A stretch of 64,000 nucleotides of DNA from a virus, in the IMG/VR virus record IMGVR_UViG_3300013005_000002, positions 15,791 through 79,790 of that record; one strand, 5' to 3'. Every line of letters starts with the position of its first letter. The first letter of the stretch is position 1. Both the position numbers and the translations under genes were made by a program. Below, in pieces: positions 4,579 to 62,912 of this stretch. Below the pieces are notes generated by a model. It ran no database searches. It was given only the letters and a program-made list of their open reading frames with translations, and was not told the DNA's origin.

Positions 4579-5322
4579 ATGAAGATAATGTCTAGCACGT
4601 GTAAATGTTGCAAACAAACCAAAACAAAGATAGCTAAAAAAGAAGGAAATAAATTTAATTATGTTGATGAAAATAATACACTCTGGAAAGGTAGGTATTG
4701 CCCTTCCTGTAAAAAAGAATATACAGCAAGTTACAATAAACTAAAGCCCCGGCCATCCGCCTACAAAAAATCAACTAAACCTCTTTTGGATAAAACTTGT
4801 ACTGTTTGCAAAACAGAGTTTAAAACAAAAAATCCAAGACAAGGACTATGTTCTAAGGAATGCAGAAGACAAGTTAAAAATTTAAAACGTAGAAAACCTC
4901 TATCTCCTAAAAAAGTAAAAGAACCAAAAATTGTACATCCTAAAAATTGTCTGACATGCAGTAAAAGCTTTTTACCTAAAAACTCACGAGGTAACTATTG
5001 TCAAAAAAAATGTATGCCTAGTGAAATTAAGTATCGCAAGAAAAGTAATCATACCGCTGCTGCCAAAAAACTAAGAAAACAACGAAAGCTTGTGCAAAAG
5101 TTTAAACAACCTATATCAAAGAAGTTTAAAAAAGAAATATTAGAAATATACGCTAGTAAACCTGAAGGATACGAGATAGACCACATTGTGCCTATAAACC
5201 ATCCTGACGTATGTGGATTACATGTGCCTTGGAATTTAAAAGTTTTAGCTAAAGAAGATAATTTAAAAAAGTCTAATAAGTTTGATGGTACTAATGAAAA
5301 TAATAATTGGGCTATCCTATAA
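4579..5322 (+). CDS. HNH endonuclease with CxxC zinc-finger repeats
   Basis: C-terminal EIDHIVPI..VCGLHVPWNLKVLAKEDNLKKSNK HNH motif; several CxxC pairs. Confidence 0.85.
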   Translation: MKIMSSTCKCCKQTKTKIAKKEGNKFNYVDENNTLWKGRYCPSCKKEYTASYNKLKPRPSAYKKSTKPLLDKTCTVCKTEFKTKNPRQGLCSKECRRQVKNLKRRKPLSPKKVKEPKIVHPKNCLTCSKSFLPKNSRGNYCQKKCMPSEIKYRKKSNHTAAAKKLRKQRKLVQKFKQPISKKFKKEILEIYASKPEGYEIDHIVPINHPDVCGLHVPWNLKVLAKEDNLKKSNKFDGTNENNNWAIL

Positions 5323-5479
5323 ATAGTACACTATTCTTCATTACTCTCCAATACAACTTGCTATACAGGGATAAGGATAGTCCTGTATAAATGTTAGACC
5401 TTAAATCAATTGGCATTGAAAGCACGTTAATTGTTCTATCTAAATTAAACACTATTACTACCCTATTATATTTTCTCAT
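5312..5479 (-). CDS. MxKY microprotein A11 (55 aa, MRKYNRVVIVFN...SVLFIG)
   Basis: hand-translated; converges on the HNH gene stop. Confidence 0.75.
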   Translation of the reverse strand: MRKYNRVVIVFNLDRTINVLSMPIDLRSNIYTGLSLSLYSKLYWRVMKNSVLFIG

Positions 5480-5628
5480 TAATAATACACTTTCCGCATA
5501 ATAGCTAGATACACCATAAAATACTGAGGACCACTTTCTGCAATTATAGTTTCTACGCTTGGTGACAATAATCCTATGTATTTAAATTTATAAACATTAG
5601 TTACTTCTATGTTTTTATACTTTCTCAT
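5479..5628 (-). CDS. MxKY microprotein A10 (49 aa, MRKYKNIEVTN...PQYFMVYLAIMRKVYY), paralog of A8
   Basis: hand-translated; TAATG overlap. Confidence 0.8.
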   Translation of the reverse strand: MRKYKNIEVTNVYKFKYIGLLSPSVETIIAESGPQYFMVYLAIMRKVYY

Positions 5629-5779
5629 AAAGAGAATCTCTCATATTTTTAAACAACTGATTATAGTCACTAAAGTCTAACAAAGAAAATCTTCTTTCTG
5701 TTATAAGAAGTATATTATAACATATATCGTTACTCATTTGAAAAGATAAATTCATTTCAATTATTTTATATTTCTTCAT
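5615..5779 (-). CDS. MxKY microprotein A9 (54 aa, MKKYKIIEMNL...DSLYEKV)
   Basis: hand-translated; stop inside the next start motif. Confidence 0.75.
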   Translation of the reverse strand: MKKYKIIEMNLSFQMSNDICYNILLITERRFSLLDFSDYNQLFKNMRDSLYEKV

Positions 5780-5931
5780 TAATAAAACACTTTTCTCATC
5801 ACAGCAAGTCTCACCATAAAATACTGAGGTAAAGCCCCTGCAATTAAAGTTTGAAGATTAGGCGCTATTTGTTGATACATTCTATTTCTACCATTAATAT
5901 TGTTTATTACTATTCTATTATACTTCTTCAT
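5779..5931 (-). CDS. MxKY microprotein A8 (50 aa, MKKYNRIVINN...PQYFMVRLAVMRKVFY), paralog of A10
   Basis: hand-translated; TAATG overlap. Confidence 0.8.
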   Translation of the reverse strand: MKKYNRIVINNINGRNRMYQQIAPNLQTLIAGALPQYFMVRLAVMRKVFY

Positions 5932-6071
5932 ACCTTACCTATATACTTTGCATTCATATATAATGCCAAAAGTGGATAATAGTCACATACAGTCAAATCA
6001 AGTTCTCGGGCTAAGCGGTCATACGCTATCATTGGAATAAAATCTATACTTACTAAATTATATTTTTTCAT
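5928..6071 (-). CDS. MxKY microprotein A7 (47 aa, MKKYNLVSIDF...KYIGKV)
   Basis: hand-translated; ATGA overlap with the next gene. Confidence 0.75.
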   Translation of the reverse strand: MKKYNLVSIDFIPMIAYDRLARELDLTVCDYYPLLALYMNAKYIGKV

Positions 6072-6228
6072 CATATCCCATTACCTTACTTATACTTAAC
6101 ATAGCAAAGAAATAAAACATTGCTATTCTAAGATTCCATACTGGCTTTAATTCTACAAGAGTATTATATTGTATAGAACGACGTAAGCTTTCTTTAATAC
6201 GTAAATCTAAATTGTTATATTTTTTCAT
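6058..6228 (-). CDS. MxKY microprotein A6 (56 aa, MKKYNNLDLRIKE...GYDEKI)
   Basis: hand-translated; hydrophobic C-terminal stretch. Confidence 0.75.
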   Translation of the reverse strand: MKKYNNLDLRIKESLRRSIQYNTLVELKPVWNLRIAMFYFFAMLSISKVMGYDEKI

Positions 6229-6231
6229 GTT

Positions 6232-6381
6232 TTACCAAAATAAAGGATACATTGGAATAAATATAAAACCACTTATAATTGTATGAATACGTAGTTCAGT
6301 TGCGTAATTTACTTCATACTTGAGTCCTTCTATTTTATTTAGAGTTAACCCCTTTATTTTTATGCATTTATATTTTTTCAT
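6232..6381 (-). CDS. MxKY microprotein A5 (49 aa, MKKYKCIKIKGLTLNKIE...YPLFW), paralog of A3
   Basis: hand-translated; clear alignment to A3. Confidence 0.8.
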   Translation of the reverse strand: MKKYKCIKIKGLTLNKIEGLKYEVNYATELRIHTIISGFIFIPMYPLFW

Positions 6382-6545
6382 ATATTTTCTTTTAAAGCAT
6401 AACACACTCTAGCATAAACCTGAAATCCAAAAGGTAAAAGAATTTCTTTAGACAGTTTATAATAAAATAAAACTTCAATTTGCGTTTTAAATACAGAGTT
6501 AAGATGACTGGATACTCCAGTATGTATATTTTTATATTTTCTCAT
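6378..6545 (-). CDS. MxKY microprotein A4 (55 aa, MRKYKNIHTG...YALKENI)
   Basis: hand-translated; ATGA overlaps at both ends. Confidence 0.75.
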   Translation of the reverse strand: MRKYKNIHTGVSSHLNSVFKTQIEVLFYYKLSKEILLPFGFQVYARVCYALKENI

Positions 6546-6697
6546 ATTTCACCAAAAAGAAACCACACAGGAAGATATGGAAACTGTCCTAGTATTATGT
6601 GGATATACAATTCAGTTTTATAATCTACCTCATACTTATAGCTTTCTATTTTATTAAGAGTTAGTCCCCTCATTTTTATGCACTCATACTTCTTCAT
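6542..6697 (-). CDS. MxKY microprotein A3 (51 aa, MKKYECIKMRGLTLNKIE...FLFGEI), paralog of A5
   Basis: hand-translated; ATGA overlap with the next gene. Confidence 0.8.
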   Translation of the reverse strand: MKKYECIKMRGLTLNKIESYKYEVDYKTELYIHIILGQFPYLPVWFLFGEI

Positions 6698-6845
6698 AAT
6701 ATAATGCTTCATTTCTTAATTTACACATTATTTGCCAAAATCCTTGGTCAAAGACCACATCTATTTGATGCGTAGTTTCAAAATTAAAACTCCGACATTG
6801 ATATAAATTTTTATAGTACAGGTATATTCTATTATATTTCTTCAT
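6684..6845 (-). CDS. MxKY microprotein A2 (53 aa, MKKYNRIYLYYK...ALYYEEV)
   Basis: hand-translated; overlapping junctions on both sides. Confidence 0.75.
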   Translation of the reverse strand: MKKYNRIYLYYKNLYQCRSFNFETTHQIDVVFDQGFWQIMCKLRNEALYYEEV

Positions 6846-7002
6846 AAATATAATGTTTCACTTTAAATTTTATTTGATGAGCAGTATGATGTGCACCTGT
6901 CGATAAAGCAGGAAATTTTATATATTTTGTCTGGTTTAAAAACAGTACACTTAACTGGTATCTTAAGCTAAACCATAAACTATAATTATGATATTTTCTC
7001 AT
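6832..7002 (-). CDS. MxKY microprotein A1 (56 aa, MRKYHNYSLWFSLRYQ...HYIYEEI)
   Basis: hand-translated; ATGA overlap with the PDZ gene stop; its own stop lies inside the next start motif. Confidence 0.75.
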   Translation of the reverse strand: MRKYHNYSLWFSLRYQLSVLFLNQTKYIKFPALSTGAHHTAHQIKFKVKHYIYEEI

Positions 7003-7412
7003 TTAACACATATCACTTCTCTAATTAAAACTATAATCCAAGTTTTATCTCCCCTAGTTACTGTAATCTCTACTTTAGTACCAGGCTTACCCCTGATCTC
7101 TTCATTAGAGTGTATAACATCCCCGGCTTTAAGTCCAGCTTTAAATGCTGGGTATCCTTCATATACAGATTCAATTAAGGGAAATCCAGAAAGACCTATA
7201 CCACCAAATGTATCCACACAGGCTTCACCTGGATTATCTCCTTTAGGAATAATAATGGTTTCTTCAAGTCCCCCTTTTGGATGATCGCCGCTACCTAATT
7301 CCTGCAAATCAACGGTGATTGATTTAGGCTGCTGAGGGGAGATGAAAATAAGCGACACCAATCCAAAATGGATAAGAGTACTAGCTATAAAAAATTTTAT
7401 ATCTCTAAACAT
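6999..7412 (-). CDS. membrane-anchored PDZ-domain protein
   Basis: N-terminal TM with S-x3-H (ASTLIH); GGIGL...VYEGYPAFKAGLKAGDVI...IRGKPGTKVEITVTRG resembles the PDZ domain of CtpA-type proteases. Confidence 0.75.
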   Translation of the reverse strand: MFRDIKFFIASTLIHFGLVSLIFISPQQPKSITVDLQELGSGDHPKGGLEETIIIPKGDNPGEACVDTFGGIGLSGFPLIESVYEGYPAFKAGLKAGDVIHSNEEIRGKPGTKVEITVTRGDKTWIIVLIREVICVK

Positions 7413-7578
7413 TTTTTAATACACCACTGGATATCTTATAATTAAATACTAACGAAATAAATAGTTTGGATATTTTATTCTCCACCATGTACCCAGCATT
7501 TTTTCTAATATAGCCGAGGTAGTGATAATACACTTGGTCATATACTTGACCTATGTGTACTGGTTTATATTTTTTCAA
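7405..7578 (-). CDS. dispersed MxKY-family microprotein (57 aa, TTG start, (M)KKYKPVHIG...)
   Basis: hand-translated; TTGA overlap with the upstream stop; exactly fills the intergenic gap. Confidence 0.65.
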   Translation of the reverse strand: MKKYKPVHIGQVYDQVYYHYLGYIRKNAGYMVENKISKLFISLVFNYKISSGVLKNV

Positions 7579-8030
7579 GCTTTAGTCCAGTATTTATCTT
7601 GGATAGTTTTTCCACATACATTACCAAAGATTCCTGGCTTTACAAACTCAATACCATCTAAAGACGACACAAGTTCATCGGTAATTTCAGGATAGATTTT
7701 GCACATACGTTGTATGGCAAAATTATACACTTGCTTCTGATACCATAATCCAAGTTTGTGTAGTCCTGTGTATTTAGTAAAAGGTTTAGTAACGTGCCAA
7801 TCAAAATTATAAAGAAGAGGCCACTTTATCCAAACATAGCCTGGGTACAATAGTGAGTGTAACCCGCCATCCCAGAAATATGGATGGTCGCGGAATGTGC
7901 CATACTTTTCTTTTCCATGAGTACCAATTCTACCATAGGTTTTCCATGTACGCATAATATAACTAATAGCAATATCTAGCTTATCTCCATGTTCTTCAAA
8001 CCATGTATCACCCCACTGATGACTTGGCAT
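7575..8030 (-). CDS. hypothetical protein
   Basis: 151-aa ORF with a KEKYGT motif; AGGAG RBS. Confidence 0.75.
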   Translation of the reverse strand: MPSHQWGDTWFEEHGDKLDIAISYIMRTWKTYGRIGTHGKEKYGTFRDHPYFWDGGLHSLLYPGYVWIKWPLLYNFDWHVTKPFTKYTGLHKLGLWYQKQVYNFAIQRMCKIYPEITDELVSSLDGIEFVKPGIFGNVCGKTIQDKYWTKA

Positions 8031-8945: not shown

Positions 8946-9155
8946 TTAGGACAAGTCAATATATAATACACTATTTATAAAAAAAGTGCTATCTAGAATA
9001 TTATCCCATAGCCACCCCGGATTTTTTAAATCTTCAGGAGAATCTTTAGTCCATCTAGTAATGTATTCACTTATCTCATATCTTGGATCATCCATAAAAT
9101 ATTCTTTTAATATTTCAAAGCCTTTATTAAATTCTACATTACGATATTTTCTCAT
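8946..9155 (-). CDS. dispersed MxKY-family microprotein (69 aa, MRKYRNVEF...)
   Basis: ORF track; ATGA overlap with the upstream family member. Confidence 0.7.
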   Translation of the reverse strand: MRKYRNVEFNKGFEILKEYFMDDPRYEISEYITRWTKDSPEDLKNPGWLWDNILDSTFFINSVLYIDLS

Positions 9156-9331
9156 AAAAATAGATTATTATTCCAAAGCAATCGGTTTAATAGAAGTTCT
9201 TCTATTAATCTTACTTCAAGAAAATTAATACTTTTTAATGTTGTGTACATATGATCACTAATGTAGCGTCTATATTGTGTATGAATTTCAAATACTTCGT
9301 ATACAAGCACTGTTTTTTTATACTTTCTCAT
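9152..9331 (-). CDS. dispersed MxKY-family microprotein (59 aa, MRKYKKTVLVYEVF...)
   Basis: hand-translated; first gene of the island, 6 nt downstream of a TATTAT -10 box. Confidence 0.7.
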   Translation of the reverse strand: MRKYKKTVLVYEVFEIHTQYRRYISDHMYTTLKSINFLEVRLIEELLLNRLLWNNNLFL

Positions 9332-27650: not shown

Positions 27651-27660
27651 TTTAATTACT

Positions 27661-27710
27661 TGTATTTTTTAGAGATTATCCTTGACTTTTATGTATTTTT
27701 TAGAGATAAT
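27661..27710 (+). promoter_or_regulatory. sigma70 promoter overlapped by a 16-bp direct repeat
   Basis: TTGACT 27682-87, 17 nt, GATAAT 27705-10; TGTATTTTTTAGAGAT at 27661-76 and 27692-707. Confidence 0.6.
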
Positions 27711-27731
27711 AATTTACATAGGAGTTTTTCA

Positions 27732-29195
27732 GTGACAAAAAAATGTAGTAAATGTAATTTAGAAAAAACTTTAGATTTATTTCCTAATTTAAAAAGGTCT
27801 AAAGACGGCAAGTATCCTCAATGTAAAGAATGTAAATCAAGTATAGATAAACAATATTATAGTTTTAATTCCGATAAAGTTAAAAATAATGCAAAAAATT
27901 ATTATTCTAATAATAAAGAAAACATTCTTCAAAATATAAACAAAGAAGCTAAGTCTCTATATAGAAAACAATATTACGAAAAAAATAAACATATTGAATT
28001 AGAAAACGGCAAGCAATATAAAGAACACAATAAAGAGTTTCTTTCTAAAAAAAGATCAGAGTATCGTAAAGAAAATAGAAATAAAATTAATGAATATACT
28101 AGAAATCGTAAAAAAGTAGACCCGTTGTTTAGACTAGGTATTAATTTAAGAAAAAGACTTGGTGAAGTATTAAGAAATAAAGATATCATTAAAACCCAAA
28201 AACTTAATGATTATATAGGATGTTCTAAAGATGAACTAATTAAACACATAGAATCTCAATTTAAATCTAATATGAATTGGGAAAATTACGGAACTGTTTG
28301 GAATATAGACCACATAATCCCTTTGTCTGCTGGCAAAACAGAAAACCATCTATATCAGCTTTCACATTATAAAAATTTACGCCCATTAGACTGTATGGAA
28401 AATTTTAAAAAGAATAATAAAATTGAAGTGTGTTGGCAAAAATTTCAAAGAGATAAAAACTTAGATAATGATATTAAAAGTGGATTTAATTTTAATTTAA
28501 CTCCTTCTGATTTCATTCTTTCTATAGAAAAGCTTTCATTAGAGCATAGAAAATTTATTCAAAAATATGAATGGTTAGGTACAATTGGATTTGGGGTTAA
28601 GTGGGTATTTACCGCTAGATATAAGGACGATTTGGCTGGGGTTGTTATGGTATCCGAACCTAATTCATACCATTTTGGTAAGGAAGAGGCTTTGATCCAA
28701 AGAGGAGCGGTATCTAGTTGGGCTCCTAAAAATTTAAATAGTAAATTAGTTATGTTTGCTTGTAGATGGATGGTTAGAAATACAGAAAAAAGAATTTTTA
28801 CTGCTTATTCTGACGTTGAAGCTGGTGAAATAGGAACTATCTATCAAGCTTGTAATTTTGATTACTTAGGGCAAGGATTTGGTGCGTCGGTTTACTATAA
28901 ATTAGCTGATGGTAGAGTGAAAGGATCTAGATATTTTACTAGAACTTCTGCTATGAAAAAATGGGCTAAGGAGTTAAACATTGAATGGAAATCAGAATGG
29001 TGTAAGGCAAATGGGTTTCAAGACGTAGCTAAAATCCCTCAAATCATAAAAGATTATGCTAAAGAAAAGATGAAAGAATGTGAAAAAGTACAACAATTGT
29101 CCAAACACAAGTATGCATTATTATTAAATTATGGTAAAAATAAAATTAATAAGCAATGGATACCTAAACCATATCCAAAAAGGATTAAGGATTAA
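27732..29195 (+). CDS. HNH endonuclease - Mom-like GNAT DNA-modification fusion
   Basis: GTG start after AGGAG; CxxC, WNIDHIIP..SHYKNLRPL..ENFKKNNK (HNH); C-terminal APKNLNSKLV...AYSDVEAGEIGTIYQACNFDYLG (Mom-family motif). Confidence 0.75.
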   Translation: MTKKCSKCNLEKTLDLFPNLKRSKDGKYPQCKECKSSIDKQYYSFNSDKVKNNAKNYYSNNKENILQNINKEAKSLYRKQYYEKNKHIELENGKQYKEHNKEFLSKKRSEYRKENRNKINEYTRNRKKVDPLFRLGINLRKRLGEVLRNKDIIKTQKLNDYIGCSKDELIKHIESQFKSNMNWENYGTVWNIDHIIPLSAGKTENHLYQLSHYKNLRPLDCMENFKKNNKIEVCWQKFQRDKNLDNDIKSGFNFNLTPSDFILSIEKLSLEHRKFIQKYEWLGTIGFGVKWVFTARYKDDLAGVVMVSEPNSYHFGKEEALIQRGAVSSWAPKNLNSKLVMFACRWMVRNTEKRIFTAYSDVEAGEIGTIYQACNFDYLGQGFGASVYYKLADGRVKGSRYFTRTSAMKKWAKELNIEWKSEWCKANGFQDVAKIPQIIKDYAKEKMKECEKVQQLSKHKYALLLNYGKNKINKQWIPKPYPKRIKD

Positions 29196-29610
29196 ACATC
29201 CTACTCTTTCTATCAGTTCTCACACCTAAGTCAAGGTGAACCCACGTCGTGACCTTACCTTTAGTAAAATCAGGATTTTCCAACCACAGCTCATATTTCT
29301 TTAGTACCTCAGGCTTCCCTTTCAGTATCCCCGCTATACTCTGCTTACTATCATCCAAAATGTCCACAGCTAAGCACTGTGTATGCAAGCTCTTCTTAGC
29401 AGCATTTGCAATCTGCGCATTTACAGCACTTGGTCTAAATCCTGAACTCACCTTAAGCTTAGTTGTATCAATCCCGCACTCAGCCAAACAAGCATTTACA
29501 GCTTTAAGCAACTTTGCTGCATTATCCAAATATTCTTGCGTAAGTTCCTTATTTTTTTCTCTGTCTGGATATGCTCCGCTTGCTGTCAAATATTCACGTA
29601 AATCAATCAT
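29185..29610 (-). CDS. peptidase M15-family endolysin
   Basis: SSGFRP..N......KSLH....AVDI ... WVHLD zinc-peptidase motifs. Confidence 0.85.
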   Translation of the reverse strand: MIDLREYLTASGAYPDREKNKELTQEYLDNAAKLLKAVNACLAECGIDTTKLKVSSGFRPSAVNAQIANAAKKSLHTQCLAVDILDDSKQSIAGILKGKPEVLKKYELWLENPDFTKGKVTTWVHLDLGVRTDRKSRMFNP

Positions 29611-29767
29611 AAATTTCCTCTATTGATGTTATAATATGGTGTATTTCTTGTCTAGTACTAATTATTTTCCAAAATAACCATCCATAATTAGTGCGATAAG
29701 TCATGTCAGAAAGAAATCTAGAAATTCTAAACGTGTCTCTACTCAATACGTTATTATATTTTTTCAT
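29603..29767 (-). CDS. dispersed MxKY-family microprotein (54 aa, MKKYNNVLSRDT...)
   Basis: hand-translated; ATGA overlap with the upstream member; overlaps the endolysin start. Confidence 0.7.
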   Translation of the reverse strand: MKKYNNVLSRDTFRISRFLSDMTYRTNYGWLFWKIISTRQEIHHIITSIEEIYD

Positions 29768-29946
29768 ATTAAATTATCTCCCGATAAATCATTACACAAA
29801 AAATATAGTAAATTATAAACATTAAAATCCATAAATAATCCATGAAAAAATATACTACCATAATAAGCTACTCCTAATTGTATAAACAAAAAAGGAGCCA
29901 TTTTTGCGTTAGAATCTGTTCTTAAAACTGCATTATACTTTCTCAT
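29764..29946 (-). CDS. dispersed MxKY-family microprotein (60 aa, MRKYNAVLRTD...)
   Basis: ORF track 29764-29955 with the start reassigned to MRKY; upstream gene ends in the same ...EKV* overlap seen in the array. Confidence 0.7.
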   Translation of the reverse strand: MRKYNAVLRTDSNAKMAPFLFIQLGVAYYGSIFFHGLFMDFNVYNLLYFLCNDLSGDNLI

Positions 29947-30133
29947 CTGCTTCAACTACATTACCTTTTTTATCATAAAATTTTAAAATCAAGCATTGCT
30001 CGTGAGTATCACCATCCATAGTAGTTTCCAGCGTATATTTCTTAACTTTACTAATATCTACAATATCAGCAAAATCCTCTAAGTCCAAGTAACAATTACC
30101 TTTTTTATCTTTTTTCACTTTAATATTTTTCAT
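29933..30133 (-). CDS. hypothetical protein
   Basis: ORF track; GAGG RBS. Confidence 0.65.
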   Translation of the reverse strand: MKNIKVKKDKKGNCYLDLEDFADIVDISKVKKYTLETTMDGDTHEQCLILKFYDKKGNVVEADEKV

Positions 30134-30387
30134 AACTTTACCTCATATTCATTAAATAATTCATATAGTTGCTCTCTTACTGCCTCAAGTACTGCTACTG
30201 TAATCTCTGGATGTGTCTTTAATAACTCAGCAAGTTTAGGATCACTCGATGATTCATACTTTAATGCTGATCGTAAATATGTCATGTCTAGTTCCCATAA
30301 AATACAGTGCATGGCTCCGGCTTTGCAAGTAGTTTCATATTCTTCTCTTTCTTCTGGTAAGTTAAATTCTAGTATAGCTTTTGGCAT
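30130..30387 (-). CDS. conserved phage hypothetical protein (MPKAILEFNLPEE)
   Basis: recognisable KAILEFNLP N-terminal motif of phage small proteins. Confidence 0.75.
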   Translation of the reverse strand: MPKAILEFNLPEEREEYETTCKAGAMHCILWELDMTYLRSALKYESSSDPKLAELLKTHPEITVAVLEAVREQLYELFNEYEVKL

Positions 30388-30542
30388 ATTACACTTCCTG
30401 TCTTATTTAGTACGTCTAGTTTTACCCACCAACGTTCTAGTTTAGCCGGGCGTTTCACATAAGTTACACCTAGCTGCATCCATAACACAAATCCAAAACG
30501 CAGAGGGTATTTGTAATTAGAAATAGGTTGATATTTTCTCAT
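30369..30542 (-). CDS. dispersed MxKY-family microprotein (57 aa, MRKYQPISNYKYP...)
   Basis: hand-translated; GAGG RBS; first gene after a sigma70 promoter; shares QLGVxY with 29764-29946. Confidence 0.7.
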   Translation of the reverse strand: MRKYQPISNYKYPLRFGFVLWMQLGVTYVKRPAKLERWWVKLDVLNKTGSVICQKLY

Positions 30543-59850: not shown

Positions 59851-60374
59851 ACACGTTTTCCTTTTATAAATATACTATCACTCTTTTGTAAAGCTCGACA
59901 TAAATAAGCAGGAGAAATATTTAAAAAATTTGCAGCTTCTTTTTGAGATTGAAATTCAGTATTTTCCACTAACAATACTTTTCTTCTATCTTTACAAGTA
60001 TTTTCGGCATGTGAAATAAATCTTAAATTATCCAAACTGTAATCTTTTTTATTATTAATTCTGTCGATTGATGGAGAAAATTTTCTTTTAAATGAATTTT
60101 TTTGCCAATTTTTATACAGTTTTAAAAAAGTAATATCATTTTTAAATTTAGTAATAAATTGTTCTTTGCTTAGCTTTTTTTTACCAAAATAATTAGGTCT
60201 TTGTTTATCAAAATGATTGCATCTTCTAGATATTTCAGAATAACAAGTTCCTAAGTAAAATTCAGGTCTAGTTTCTCTTTTAGTTCGACGAAGACAGGCA
60301 GAACACATTCCGTTTCCAAAATGTTGTTTTTCTTTATTACATCTAGAACAAATAACTATTTTTCTAGACTTCAT
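59838..60374 (-). CDS. HNH-type homing endonuclease inserted between the polB halves
   Basis: start at MKSRK; CxxC pairs; SPSIDRINNKKDYSLDNLRFIS..EN; NUMOD1-like C-terminus (FQSQKEAANFL). Confidence 0.8.
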   Translation of the reverse strand: MKSRKIVICSRCNKEKQHFGNGMCSACLRRTKRETRPEFYLGTCYSEISRRCNHFDKQRPNYFGKKKLSKEQFITKFKNDITFLKLYKNWQKNSFKRKFSPSIDRINNKKDYSLDNLRFISHAENTCKDRRKVLLVENTEFQSQKEAANFLNISPAYLCRALQKSDSIFIKGKRVCRI

Positions 60375-61923
60375 CTTCAGACTCCTCATTAGATTCTTCT
60401 TTAGTTTTCCAAAATTCAACATTTTTACCAGTAACTAATTGAACACCCTTATTTAAAATTTCTCTACCATGAGAAGTAACTAAACTTGCTCCTTCTGGAA
60501 AATTGTAATTAAGACCTGCACTTCCAAGAAAACCATAACCAGAATTTATCACAATTTTCTTTGAACTTTCTAAATCTTTATAATATTTTAATCCAGTTTC
60601 TTTTGCAAGCTTTTTATCTCTAAGCCTATCCAAAGTCAAAGTTTCAATAATATTTAAAAAGTTAGCTTCTGGGTCTTTTTGTTTATTGTATATTTTATAC
60701 TGTCTGATAATACTAGGATACAGCGAGGCTACGTCAAGTTTAAATACATTTTTATAGAGCCCAGGAATACCAAAACTAATAGCTCCAGTAAATCCTTCTC
60801 TGTCATCAGCTTTAGCTATGCTCTTACCCTTTTGTAAATATGAGCGTACCATCATATTATTTACTTGTGCACCAGTTGCTCTATTAATAATTTGCTGTAG
60901 TGGAATGCTTACTTGCTGAGAAAAGTAAAAATAGCTAGGTAGCATCATGTCGTAAATTTTAATCAAATCCTCTGCGTCATCCATTGCGTATTCTTTAACG
61001 CGCTGCCACATCTCTGGATTGGTCTCTCTTTCATTCCAATACTTTTCCATTTTAGAAGCGTCAACAAAGACCCTGTCTTTCTTTTCCATTCCAATATGTT
61101 TAATAATTTGTTTTAAACCATAGGAAGGAAATTCCCGTGCAAAGTCATACTTAATGCTCAAAAAGAATGTGTCGATAATTTCACGGCCATAAATCCAGCA
61201 ATTGTGGTACTCATAACTTTGTGAGCCATCTTTTCTAAATTGGCTAGTATATCCAGCAAACTGGACATCATTCCCATTTCTACCTAAGCTAAGTTTTGCA
61301 CCGCATAAATCTGCAACATGTTGTAAATAAGGTAAGTCATATCCAAATCCATTGTGGACTGCAATAATACTTGGGTCATAGTGTTTTACACAATTACACC
61401 AGTCTTCTAGCATTTCAGCTTGAGATGCATAATCATCCAGAAAAAAATTCTCTTTAAAAATCTCACCTTTATGATTTCTAAAAACATTAGTAATTACAAG
61501 TACTTTAGAGTTTTTATTATGTGTAAGACCAGTTCCTTCTATATCAAAAAATAATACGCTTACATCACTTGGTTTCATATTCTTAAAATATGTAACACCG
61601 TTATAAGTCATGTAATGTTCTTTGGATTCATTCATTGTATAGTAGTCTACATTTTTTTTCTTACAAGCACTCTTAGCTTGCATCCAATCACTATGTTCTT
61701 TGAATTGTGCTAAATATTTGTAGTGCTGGCCGCCAGGAAGTTCTTTTTGCTTGCTTGAAGCTTTTGCGTTGGTAAGAAGCCAGAATTGATTATCTCTGAC
61801 TTCCTTCTTTACCACGCCATCTTTTTCAATAAATAAAACAACCTTATCATCTTTTACTTCAACAGAAACAATATTCTCTGTTTTGTCTTTACCAAAGATG
61901 AGGTCATTCTCATATTGAGACAT
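60364..61923 (-). CDS. polB: family B DNA polymerase, N-terminal part (exonuclease, motifs A and B)
   Basis: FDIEG, HNGFGYDLPYL, YAMDD; LDVASLYPSII; KIVINSGYGFLG; VTSHGREIL. Confidence 0.9.
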   Translation of the reverse strand: MSQYENDLIFGKDKTENIVSVEVKDDKVVLFIEKDGVVKKEVRDNQFWLLTNAKASSKQKELPGGQHYKYLAQFKEHSDWMQAKSACKKKNVDYYTMNESKEHYMTYNGVTYFKNMKPSDVSVLFFDIEGTGLTHNKNSKVLVITNVFRNHKGEIFKENFFLDDYASQAEMLEDWCNCVKHYDPSIIAVHNGFGYDLPYLQHVADLCGAKLSLGRNGNDVQFAGYTSQFRKDGSQSYEYHNCWIYGREIIDTFFLSIKYDFAREFPSYGLKQIIKHIGMEKKDRVFVDASKMEKYWNERETNPEMWQRVKEYAMDDAEDLIKIYDMMLPSYFYFSQQVSIPLQQIINRATGAQVNNMMVRSYLQKGKSIAKADDREGFTGAISFGIPGLYKNVFKLDVASLYPSIIRQYKIYNKQKDPEANFLNIIETLTLDRLRDKKLAKETGLKYYKDLESSKKIVINSGYGFLGSAGLNYNFPEGASLVTSHGREILNKGVQLVTGKNVEFWKTKEESNEESEDEV

Positions 61924-62912
61924 TATGATTCTTTCTTTTCCATTGATTTTTTAACTTTAGTCGTCCATTCACGCATCTTTTTAATTGTATCATGAATTGG
62001 CTCATTGTACACTAATTTTTTAATACAAGCATCTTTAACGTGAGCAATTGATAGCTCACCTTTTTCAATCTCACGCTTATCAAAATCAGTAAGACTATCC
62101 TTCATAAATTTTTCAGCATATTCTATTAGTAATGCACCTTCTGGATACTTTGTCTCAATTACTTCATCAAATCTTCCTGGCCTATCGATTAGGTTAGCCA
62201 GAAACAACATTGGATAGTTTGTTGTAGAAAATATGATAATCGGTAAGTGTCTCCAGCTATCTGGAATATTATTACCATCCAAAAAAGAAAGCAATGAGTC
62301 TTGGCTAGATTGTACTCTAAATCCTAAGTCTGGCTGCTCTCCTCCACCTAAGTCCTCAATAACAACAAAAAGCTTATCTACATTTTCTGCTGGGGGGTTT
62401 TCTGACAAATATTCAACAAACTGACCCATATCTATTTCAGACATAGCAAATGAGAAGCTCACGCCATTCTCACCTAAACACTGGTCAACTGCATTATTAA
62501 TTTGATGAGTTTTACCTCCGCCATGTGGTCCATGGACTAGGTAGCCGCGCTTTATAAGACCAACACCTAAAGACTTAAGTAAATCTTTTTTATCTAAAAA
62601 TGTATTAATTTTTTGTTTAAAATTAATATTTTCTAGCTTAGGGAAATTTTCATCATGTAGTAATGTAATTGGTACTTTTTTTAAAGTATAGTTAGCAGGA
62701 ACTAACTTAAACATACCGCATTCCATTGTTGCTTTTTTGTATGATAAATCTTTAAGCTCATACACATAATTACCTTCAATTTGAAACCATTCACCGTTTC
62801 CTTTTTTTGGTAATTTTTTGTTATTACAATCTTGAGCATGAGTAACTTTTGTTATGACAATATTGTCACTTTCTAGTGTTTCCATATCATGTATTAAATC
62901 TCTTATTTTCAT
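61923..62912 (-). CDS. AAA+ ATPase
   Basis: GPHGGGKT Walker A, VIEDL Walker B, TTNYP sensor 1, DRPGRFD arginine finger. Confidence 0.85.
   Translation of the reverse strand: MKIRDLIHDMETLESDNIVITKVTHAQDCNNKKLPKKGNGEWFQIEGNYVYELKDLSYKKATMECGMFKLVPANYTLKKVPITLLHDENFPKLENINFKQKINTFLDKKDLLKSLGVGLIKRGYLVHGPHGGGKTHQINNAVDQCLGENGVSFSFAMSEIDMGQFVEYLSENPPAENVDKLFVVIEDLGGGEQPDLGFRVQSSQDSLLSFLDGNNIPDSWRHLPIIIFSTTNYPMLFLANLIDRPGRFDEVIETKYPEGALLIEYAEKFMKDSLTDFDKREIEKGELSIAHVKDACIKKLVYNEPIHDTIKKMREWTTKVKKSMEKKES

Follow-up and report, generated by a model that had tools for sequence, protein, structure and literature searches.

A tandem array of small genes with a common start in a phage genome, and the gain and loss of its units

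The present study deals with a tandem array of small genes that tiles the minus strand at positions 5312-7002 of a stretch of viral DNA 64,000 nucleotides (nt) long, which is referred to as the window and to which all coordinates given below belong. The window corresponds to bases 15791-79790 of the IMG/VR record IMGVR_UViG_3300013005_000002, a virus of 79,790 base pairs (bp) with terminal repeats, which is rated complete and has a guanine-cytosine content of about 33%. Among its genes are those for a large terminase of the T4 type, a portal like that of P22, a DNA polymerase of family B and the major head protein, and the virus is called the window phage here. The public sequencing runs that contain the stretch are lake-water metagenomes. 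Among isolate phages (INPHARED) no DNA match to the window phage was found, and the closest terminase match among isolates, that of a Silvanigrella phage, reaches an identity of only 27%. The array is located in a long minus-strand block shared with the replication genes.

Architecture and turnover of the array

The array consists of 11 overlapping open reading frames (ORFs), each of 47-56 amino acids (aa). All 11 starts read ATG-ARR-AAR-TAT-VA and follow one another at distances of 157, 148, 152, 164, 153, 157, 140, 152, 151 and 149 nt. Intergenic spacers are lacking: neighbouring units overlap by 14 nt at four junctions, by ATGA at three and by TAATG at two, and a gap of 3 nt is left at one. 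At the 14-nt overlaps the stop lies within the start motif of the next unit, and the upstream proteins end in YEEI, YEEV, DEKI or YEKV; these endings result from the start word, which in the frame one base earlier becomes TAT-GAR-RAA-RTA-TAA. The tiling, the spacing of 140-164 nt, the junctions and the variation of the lysine codons had been described in a sequence-only reading of the window, and all were confirmed in the sequence.

With a threshold of at least 45 aa, the 11 ORFs cover 99.8% of the stretch, whereas 1000 Markov-1 simulations yielded 0.3 such ORFs on average and three at most, so that a chance origin of the tiling is excluded; the plus strand of 5312-7002 holds no ORF of this length. 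Genome-wide, the 12-nt start motif occurs 21 times on the strand of the array and once on the opposite strand, compared with four and zero occurrences of the reversed control. Neither a tandem DNA repeat (TRF) nor an Rfam match was detected in the array, promoter-like sites are present at chance level (43 vs 38.5 +/- 6.4 expected), and no terminator-like site lies on its minus strand. Three other interpretations of the array were rejected. A decayed long gene or polyprotein does not agree with an own in-frame start motif in each segment and a switch of frame at each junction; two-unit ('period-2') duplications do not agree with a similarity that spans one unit and the next start motif only; and the E-x-[IV] C-termini, considered as PDZ ligands, are a by-product of the next start motif in the -1 frame and are not retained in the related contig L010.

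This contig of 14.1 kilobases (kb) was the only other one retrieved when 2.9 million viral contigs were scanned with three motifs, and a further scan of viral contigs with an alignment again returned no other. Its flanks are 93-99% identical to the window phage, and its array comprises six units against 11, namely four orthologues of units 7 to 4 (u7-u4; 92-96% aa identity), one novel unit in place of u3 and u2, and one counterpart of u1 with an identity of 51%. Absent from L010 are the first unit of the array, u11 (6832..7002, 56 aa, MRKYH...), the ATG of which overlaps the TGA stop of a preceding gene for a PDZ-like protein (ATGA), u10 (6684..6845, 53 aa), which overlaps u11 by 14 nt, u9 (6542..6697, 51 aa from the motif ATG), a paralog of u7 (62% aa identity), and u8 (6378..6545, 55 aa). 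The orthologue of u7 (6232..6381, 49 aa from the motif ATG; 92% aa identity) heads the L010 array, which also retains u6 (6058..6228, 56 aa; 96% identical), u5 (5928..6071, 47 aa from the motif ATG; 94%) and u4 (5779..5931, 50 aa; 96%), the last being a paralog of u2 (44% aa identity). Instead of u3 (5615..5779, 54 aa) L010 possesses an unrelated unit with only the first 7 residues in common; u2 (5479..5628, 49 aa) is missing, and the counterpart mentioned above stands for u1 (5312..5479, 55 aa), the last unit of the array. All of these units are on the minus strand. Variants of single units were also present on further contigs: one 78% identical to u9 (P0010) on another contig of about 81 kb (80,961 bp), and one 95% identical to u1 (P0003) on a contig of 8,799 bp.

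The two phages part at two joints, the one inside the ATGA of a start motif, where the PDZ-like gene leads straight into u7 in L010, the other just after the shared M-x-K-Y-K-I-I. Near-identical phages have thus gained or lost entire units, and the breaks fall within or directly behind the start motif; in the one relative compared, this is the outcome that the sequence-only reading had set beforehand as a test of its proposal. That reading had also named two outcomes that would speak against it, stops or frameshifts in relatives with only the DNA motif conserved, and an identical fixed set of genes across diverse relatives; in L010 the frames of the units are intact, and six units stand against 11. 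Recombination within the repeated start word would produce such a pattern of breakpoints. In one respect the earlier description has to be narrowed. The units do differ between the phages, but for nine of the 16 scorable family members the identity between the window phage and L010 amounts to 82-96%, and loss or replacement in L010 affects the small genes of the region outside the family at about the same frequency as family members. As these neighbours turn over at a similar rate, the region is a generally mosaic accessory region, and the expression 'hypervariable cassette system' overstates the case.

The wider family and its surroundings

The array is not the whole of the family. In total, 22 members, 47-70 aa in length and encoded on the minus strand throughout, are spread over six clusters of the genome; the array, with 11 of them, is the largest cluster, and three of the 22 start with GTG or TTG. 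A TTG-start member of 57 aa (7405..7578, MKKYKPV...) is situated between a gene for a 151-aa protein and the PDZ-like gene, and two members of 69 and 59 aa (8946..9331) are joined by an ATGA overlap. Two more (29603..29946; 54 and 60 aa) lie directly upstream of a Peptidase_M15_3 gene (29185-29610), one of 57 aa (30369..30542) is at the head of the same minus-strand island, and five further members are found in the 15.8 kb preceding the window. The remaining small genes of the same operon have different starts.

Beyond residue 5 the bodies can be aligned only for u2 with u4 and for u7 with u9 (z = 21-24), the similarity extending in both pairs from the ATG to just past the start motif of the next unit; all other pairs behave like shuffled sequences (z <=4). 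The proteins are mostly basic and rich in aromatic residues. In none of the 22 does the maximum Kyte-Doolittle mean over 19 residues (0.15-1.48) reach the usual transmembrane threshold, and AlphaFold2 models attained a mean pLDDT of only 58 with an alignment of 23 members and of 52 with the u7/u9 subfamily, a level of confidence too low to be informative.

Database searches returned little beyond the immediate lineage. The scan described above, when applied to 241 million metagenome records, gave 42 loci, of which only L040 is real, with six units in the same arrangement as L010, the rest being simple tandem repeats or unrelated sequences; of 24 loci in 185,579 prokaryote genomes none is real for the same reasons. 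A profile search of 5.8 billion proteins matched proteins of this lineage only, the P0003 and P0010 variants included. No longer or fused forms of the units were found, which is weak evidence. Ten units searched against PHROGs gave no match below E = 0.06, the family has no match in Pfam, and the ESM Atlas offered no usable one. Seventeen related viral loci, recognised by homologues of the 151-aa gene (33-65% identity) and including several genomes of about 80 kb, have no MKKY-type ORF within 7 kb. Judged by these searches, the family is confined to a narrow lineage, since the scans return only L010 and L040 and the 17 more distant relatives are devoid of it. The earlier remark that no described family has this layout is borne out by PHROGs, the ESM Atlas and the profile search, and no database describes these proteins, which make up 4.5% of the genome. 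Five related phages of about 80 kb (L061, L066, L068, L070, L071), likewise without MKKY units, possess several copies of another small family that starts with M-K-R-S-E-[AM]-[VIL] and ends around '...LGMLPP'; this phage group seems habitually to carry small families in several copies and with a fixed start.

The gene directly upstream of the array (6999..7412, minus strand) encodes a protein of 137 aa that begins with a hydrophobic helix and contains a weak PDZ-like domain, which remained below the gathering score in Pfam and matched the PDZ domains of carboxyl-terminal proteases and DegP in the PDB with E = 0.003-0.08. It is coupled to the array by stop and start in both the window phage and L010. 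Further upstream, the 151-aa protein (7575-8030, minus strand) has 99 homologues in metagenomes with many invariant residues (among them R34, I35, K40, E41, K42 and G44); it matches neither Pfam nor PHROG and serves as a conserved marker of the phage group. At the other end, a Cys-rich ORF of 247 aa (4579..5322, plus strand) converges on the array and shares 11 nt with its end. It lies outside the family, is absent from L010 and matches PHROG families of unknown function; its HNH-like C-terminus was read by eye. The units adjoining it, u1-u3, are the replaced or most diverged ones, as would be expected if a homing-type insertion had carried flanking DNA.

The minus-strand island at 29185-30542 is embedded in the plus-strand late operon and comprises a family unit, an 85-aa ORF, a 66-aa ORF, two family units and the Peptidase_M15_3 gene, which codes for a cell-wall peptidase and overlaps the last unit of the island. 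One unit has a hydrophobic stretch of about 24 residues and could be holin-like. Just before the island, a 511-aa protein (27660-29195, plus strand) combines an endonuclease VII/HNH-like N-terminal part with a Mom-like DNA-modification domain (PF25680). The family-B DNA polymerase (60364-62912, minus strand) is seemingly split into a 519-aa ORF, with the exonuclease domain and part of the polymerase domain, and a subsequent 329-aa ORF.

Conservation of the common start

What the members have in common is only an N-terminus of nine residues, M-[KR]-K-Y-polar-x-aliphatic-x-hydrophobic, and in an alignment of the family starts no information content was found upstream of the start. Within this stretch the codons vary: the start codon is ATG, GTG or TTG, codon 2 is AAA, AAG, AGA or AGG (Lys or Arg), codon 3 AAA or AAG, and Tyr4 is encoded by TAT in 23 of 24 starts and by TAC in one. 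The ratio of 23 TAT to 1 TAC does not differ significantly from the 83% of TAT within the units, and the Tyr codon thus gives no significant sign of constraint at the nucleotide level. Arg at codon 2 is always AGR and never CGN, although CGN accounts for 32% of the Arg codons in large genes. In 20 of 22 members residue 7 is aliphatic (Ile, Val or Leu), with seven different codons in use (p = 4e-10); a hydrophobic residue stands at position 9 in 16 of 22, and positions 6, 8 and 10 are occupied by polar ones, an alternation that is the signature of an amphipathic strand. The ratio of non-synonymous to synonymous change (pN/pS) between orthologues of the window phage and L010 is 0.28 when pooled over u4-u7, and 0.09 (as pN/pS or dN/dS) for the TTG-start member; neighbouring ordinary genes show 0.12-0.25 in the same comparison. 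On this sequence evidence the units are real protein-coding genes under purifying selection. Since the start, Lys/Arg and Tyr codons vary, residues 7 and 9 are constrained and pN/pS amounts to 0.28, the evidence points to conservation that acts at the protein level, and the protein-level constraint on the start suggested by the sequence-only reading is upheld by the ratio, the wobble variation and the seven codons of residue 7.

A second property of the start became apparent from work on translation in Escherichia coli. In a library of about 250,000 reporters with random sequence at codons 3 to 5, AADUAU in codons 3 and 4 (Lys/Asn-Tyr) showed the strongest enrichment among high-yield variants, and this 'short translational ramp' was found to act on early elongation, the synthesis of the peptide MVKYQK in vitro being a matter of seconds (Verma et al., 2019; PMC6920384). 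Nucleotides 7-12 of the family, at the same position as this motif, are AAR-TAT in 23 of 24 starts and AAG-TAC in the remaining one, and codon 5 is often Asn, Lys or Gln, as in the tested MVKYQ. The two cases differ in that the ramp was obtained from an engineered E. coli library and not from a natural family, and in that it predicts neither the exclusive use of Lys, without Asn, nor the pattern at residues 7 and 9. Larger genes of the phage have clear AGGAG-type ribosome-binding sites. A 4-mer resembling a Shine-Dalgarno (SD) sequence precedes only five of 22 units. It is present at 27 of 44 large genes (p = 0.004 for the difference) and at 22 of 38 small ORFs of the neighbourhood (p = 0.015), so that the claimed lack of SD sequences is mostly correct, five units being the exception. 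Because nucleotides 7-12 equal AADUAU and the units are poor in SD sites and chained by stop and start, a translational reason for the conserved start is a strong candidate and at least as likely as a docking tag. The scarcity of SD sites is circumstantial support for a yield that the motif may raise. A general replacement of SD sites by MKKY starts in phages was considered and rejected, as other contigs show no such deficit.

Explanations, known systems and implications

Taken together, we regard it as about an even chance that the 22 genes constitute a lineage-restricted multigene family, the fixed start of which reflects common descent together with the retention of a ramp for expression and of an N-terminal strand that the proteins share. 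Repeated duplication of units, followed by very fast divergence of the bodies, would have given rise to the family. The 5' end would have remained fixed for two reasons: the AAR-UAU ramp at codons 3-4, placed after an A-rich second codon, would secure the expression of SD-poor, translationally coupled mini-genes, and residues 4-9 would make up an amphipathic strand, conserved as part of a small fold that the members have in common. A start word of 12-14 nt, recurring about every 150 bp in one orientation, would in addition provide in-register microhomology by which units may be deleted, duplicated or swapped with their frames kept. The proteins would most likely be dispensable accessory factors in the interaction with the host.

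Several points weigh against this multigene family, its ramp and its mode of turnover. Outside the two paralog pairs the bodies give no alignment that shows common descent of all 22 members. Breakpoints at unit borders are equally expected from selection for intact frames, so that recombination mediated by the motif is no more than a candidate mechanism, and the comparison of turnover covers one independent relative. The measurements of the ramp effect come from E. coli systems, which may not represent the host of this phage; a ramp alone would permit Asn3 or Ile4, each of which occurs in 0 of 24 starts, and the conservation of residues 7 and 9 falls outside its explanation. Moreover, small ORFs with MKKY starts in other viral contigs are not poor in SD sites (16 of 41 vs 172 of 645 large ORFs).

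A conserved N-terminus on otherwise unrelated bodies would also arise if the nine residues were a docking or targeting tag that delivers changeable small effectors to one partner, be it the virion interior or a hub protein of phage or host. The constraint that reaches residues 7 and 9, as well as the fact that Lys3 and Tyr4 are never swapped for other residues permitted by the ramp, agrees with such a tag, and T4 provides a precedent in its capsid targeting sequence (CTS) MKTYQEFIAE, with M, K and Y4 in common. Most units are basic like the T4 internal proteins, but this would be expected anyway from A-rich coding DNA. Neither in the interval from the portal gene to that of the major head protein nor among the other proteins scanned was a prohead protease or other candidate partner detected, no conserved cleavage motif (no conserved Glu) follows the tag, and the genes stand in a replication-side operon outside the head module. 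Four invariant residues would be a very short address, and their invariance is explained by the translational reading as well. We consider a tag of this kind unlikely, and slightly more so its fuller version, in which a short strand docks some 22 interchangeable effectors of about 50 residues on one partner, the virion interior or the co-translated PDZ-like membrane protein, as a swappable library of injected or hub-bound peptides that interfere with the host. The sequence-only reading had named anti-defence peptides and substrates docking on a common partner among the possible roles; nothing was found in support of either, and the ramp match offers a translational alternative. If the tag were real, the phage would hold a library of exchangeable effectors to which the T4 internal proteins are the only known parallel, and this would be of clear interest for the biology of phage-host conflict.

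The identical word of 12-14 nt over the start codon of 22 genes could instead be an RNA operator, AUG-ARR-AAR-UAU-AA, bound by one translational regulator that switches the whole family, as RegA acts as a translational regulator on T4 early mRNAs. Variation in the word exclusively between A and G and the use of AGR, never CGN, for Arg at codon 2 would suit a binding site, yet the variable positions are exactly those that preserve K/R-K-Y, the start codon varies, one Tyr is TAC, and conservation reaches into residues 7 and 9 at their second codon positions, as is typical of a protein sequence. With no candidate regulator identified and no Rfam match, such an operator is very improbable. To the same small degree we consider the units to be membrane-active or lysis-modulating peptides, that is, small hydrophobic aromatic proteins acting at the membrane like holins, antiholins or exclusion factors. 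Two members are directly upstream of and overlapping the Peptidase_M15_3 gene, one with the hydrophobic stretch noted above, the array is coupled to the membrane-anchored PDZ-like protein, and the C-terminal halves of several units are hydrophobic; against this, no unit attains the usual transmembrane threshold (highest 19-residue mean 1.48), charges interrupt the hydrophobic runs, and most members are distant from the lysis genes. The regular recurrence of the word on one strand at about 150 bp might finally be taken for a non-coding DNA or RNA repeat, an array of binding sites in which the ORFs are incidental. This is close to refuted by 11 open frames where simulation gives 0.3, by frames that are intact in a relative with a pN/pS of 0.28, by the lack of a TRF tandem repeat and of an Rfam family, and by conservation that tracks codon positions.

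Among known systems, multigene families and gene accordions of large DNA viruses are the closest concept for the family. MGF110 and MGF360 of African swine fever virus (ASFV) and amplified K3L of poxviruses are lineage-specific tandem paralogs which expand and contract by recombination between copies and are presumed to be host-interaction genes. Like them, the family discussed here consists of tandem, lineage-specific paralogs in a variable region; unlike these families of eukaryotic viruses, it belongs to a phage, its proteins are much smaller, and it is alignable in the first nine residues only, whereas the bodies of the former are recognisably homologous. For the turnover of units, the closest mechanism is the shuffling by PeSL in the hyperplastic regions of T4-type phages, where short repeats flank small ORFans and recombination leads to insertions, deletions and replacements between phages that are about 95% identical (Arbiol et al., 2010; PMC2839356). 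In both cases indels and replacements are bounded by a repeated element, as seen here with one relative, but PeSL is an intergenic promoter with a stem-loop terminator, while the array has no intergenic DNA and its repeated element is a coding start.

The internal proteins of T4 (IPI, IPII, IPIII) are small, basic, non-essential and diverse defence proteins, with loci that are polymorphic between related phages (PMC3012670). They resemble the family in a short conserved N-terminus on diverse bodies, M1, K2 and Y4 of the CTS coinciding, and differ from it in that they undergo packaging and have their CTS cut off by the prohead protease, whereas in the window phage no protease gene and no conserved cleavage site (L/I-x-E in T4) were found. 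The family lies outside the head module, its proteins are half the size, it counts 22 copies versus three, and there is no sequence homology beyond the three residues. MKKY starts recur on unrelated pairs of tiled small ORFs of further viral contigs, the 14-nt overlap being seen again in some of them, and this recurrence speaks for the translational reading. Such pairs (for instance on L076, L104, L109, L132 and L136; PHROGs 3674, 9642 and 10718, 'unknown function') resemble the family in size, in phage origin and in the M-K-K-Y start, and they too have stop/start overlaps of 1, 4 or 14 nt, but they are acidic, bear a helix signature '...EA-x-x-EEA' and a hydrophobic register of 4-6-8 versus 4-7-9, occur as pairs instead of 11-22 copies, and have no detectable homology to the units. 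Tiled acidic MKKY pairs of about 50-65 aa (Y4-V6-hydrophobic8) were also seen on L156, L159, L160 and L164; of all these pairs, a few match the PHROGs named above.

If the lineage-restricted multigene family is the correct explanation, a simple search rule for missed microprotein families would emerge, as the same start word repeated at gene-length spacing can be looked for where gene callers and cut-offs of ORF length overlook such families. In that case the array would also unite two subjects that are mostly treated apart: a Lys-Tyr ramp discovered in a library would have been kept by selection across 22 diverged genes that mostly lack SD sites, and an accessory multigene family of this phage would expand and shed whole genes with its own start sequence alone as homology for recombination.

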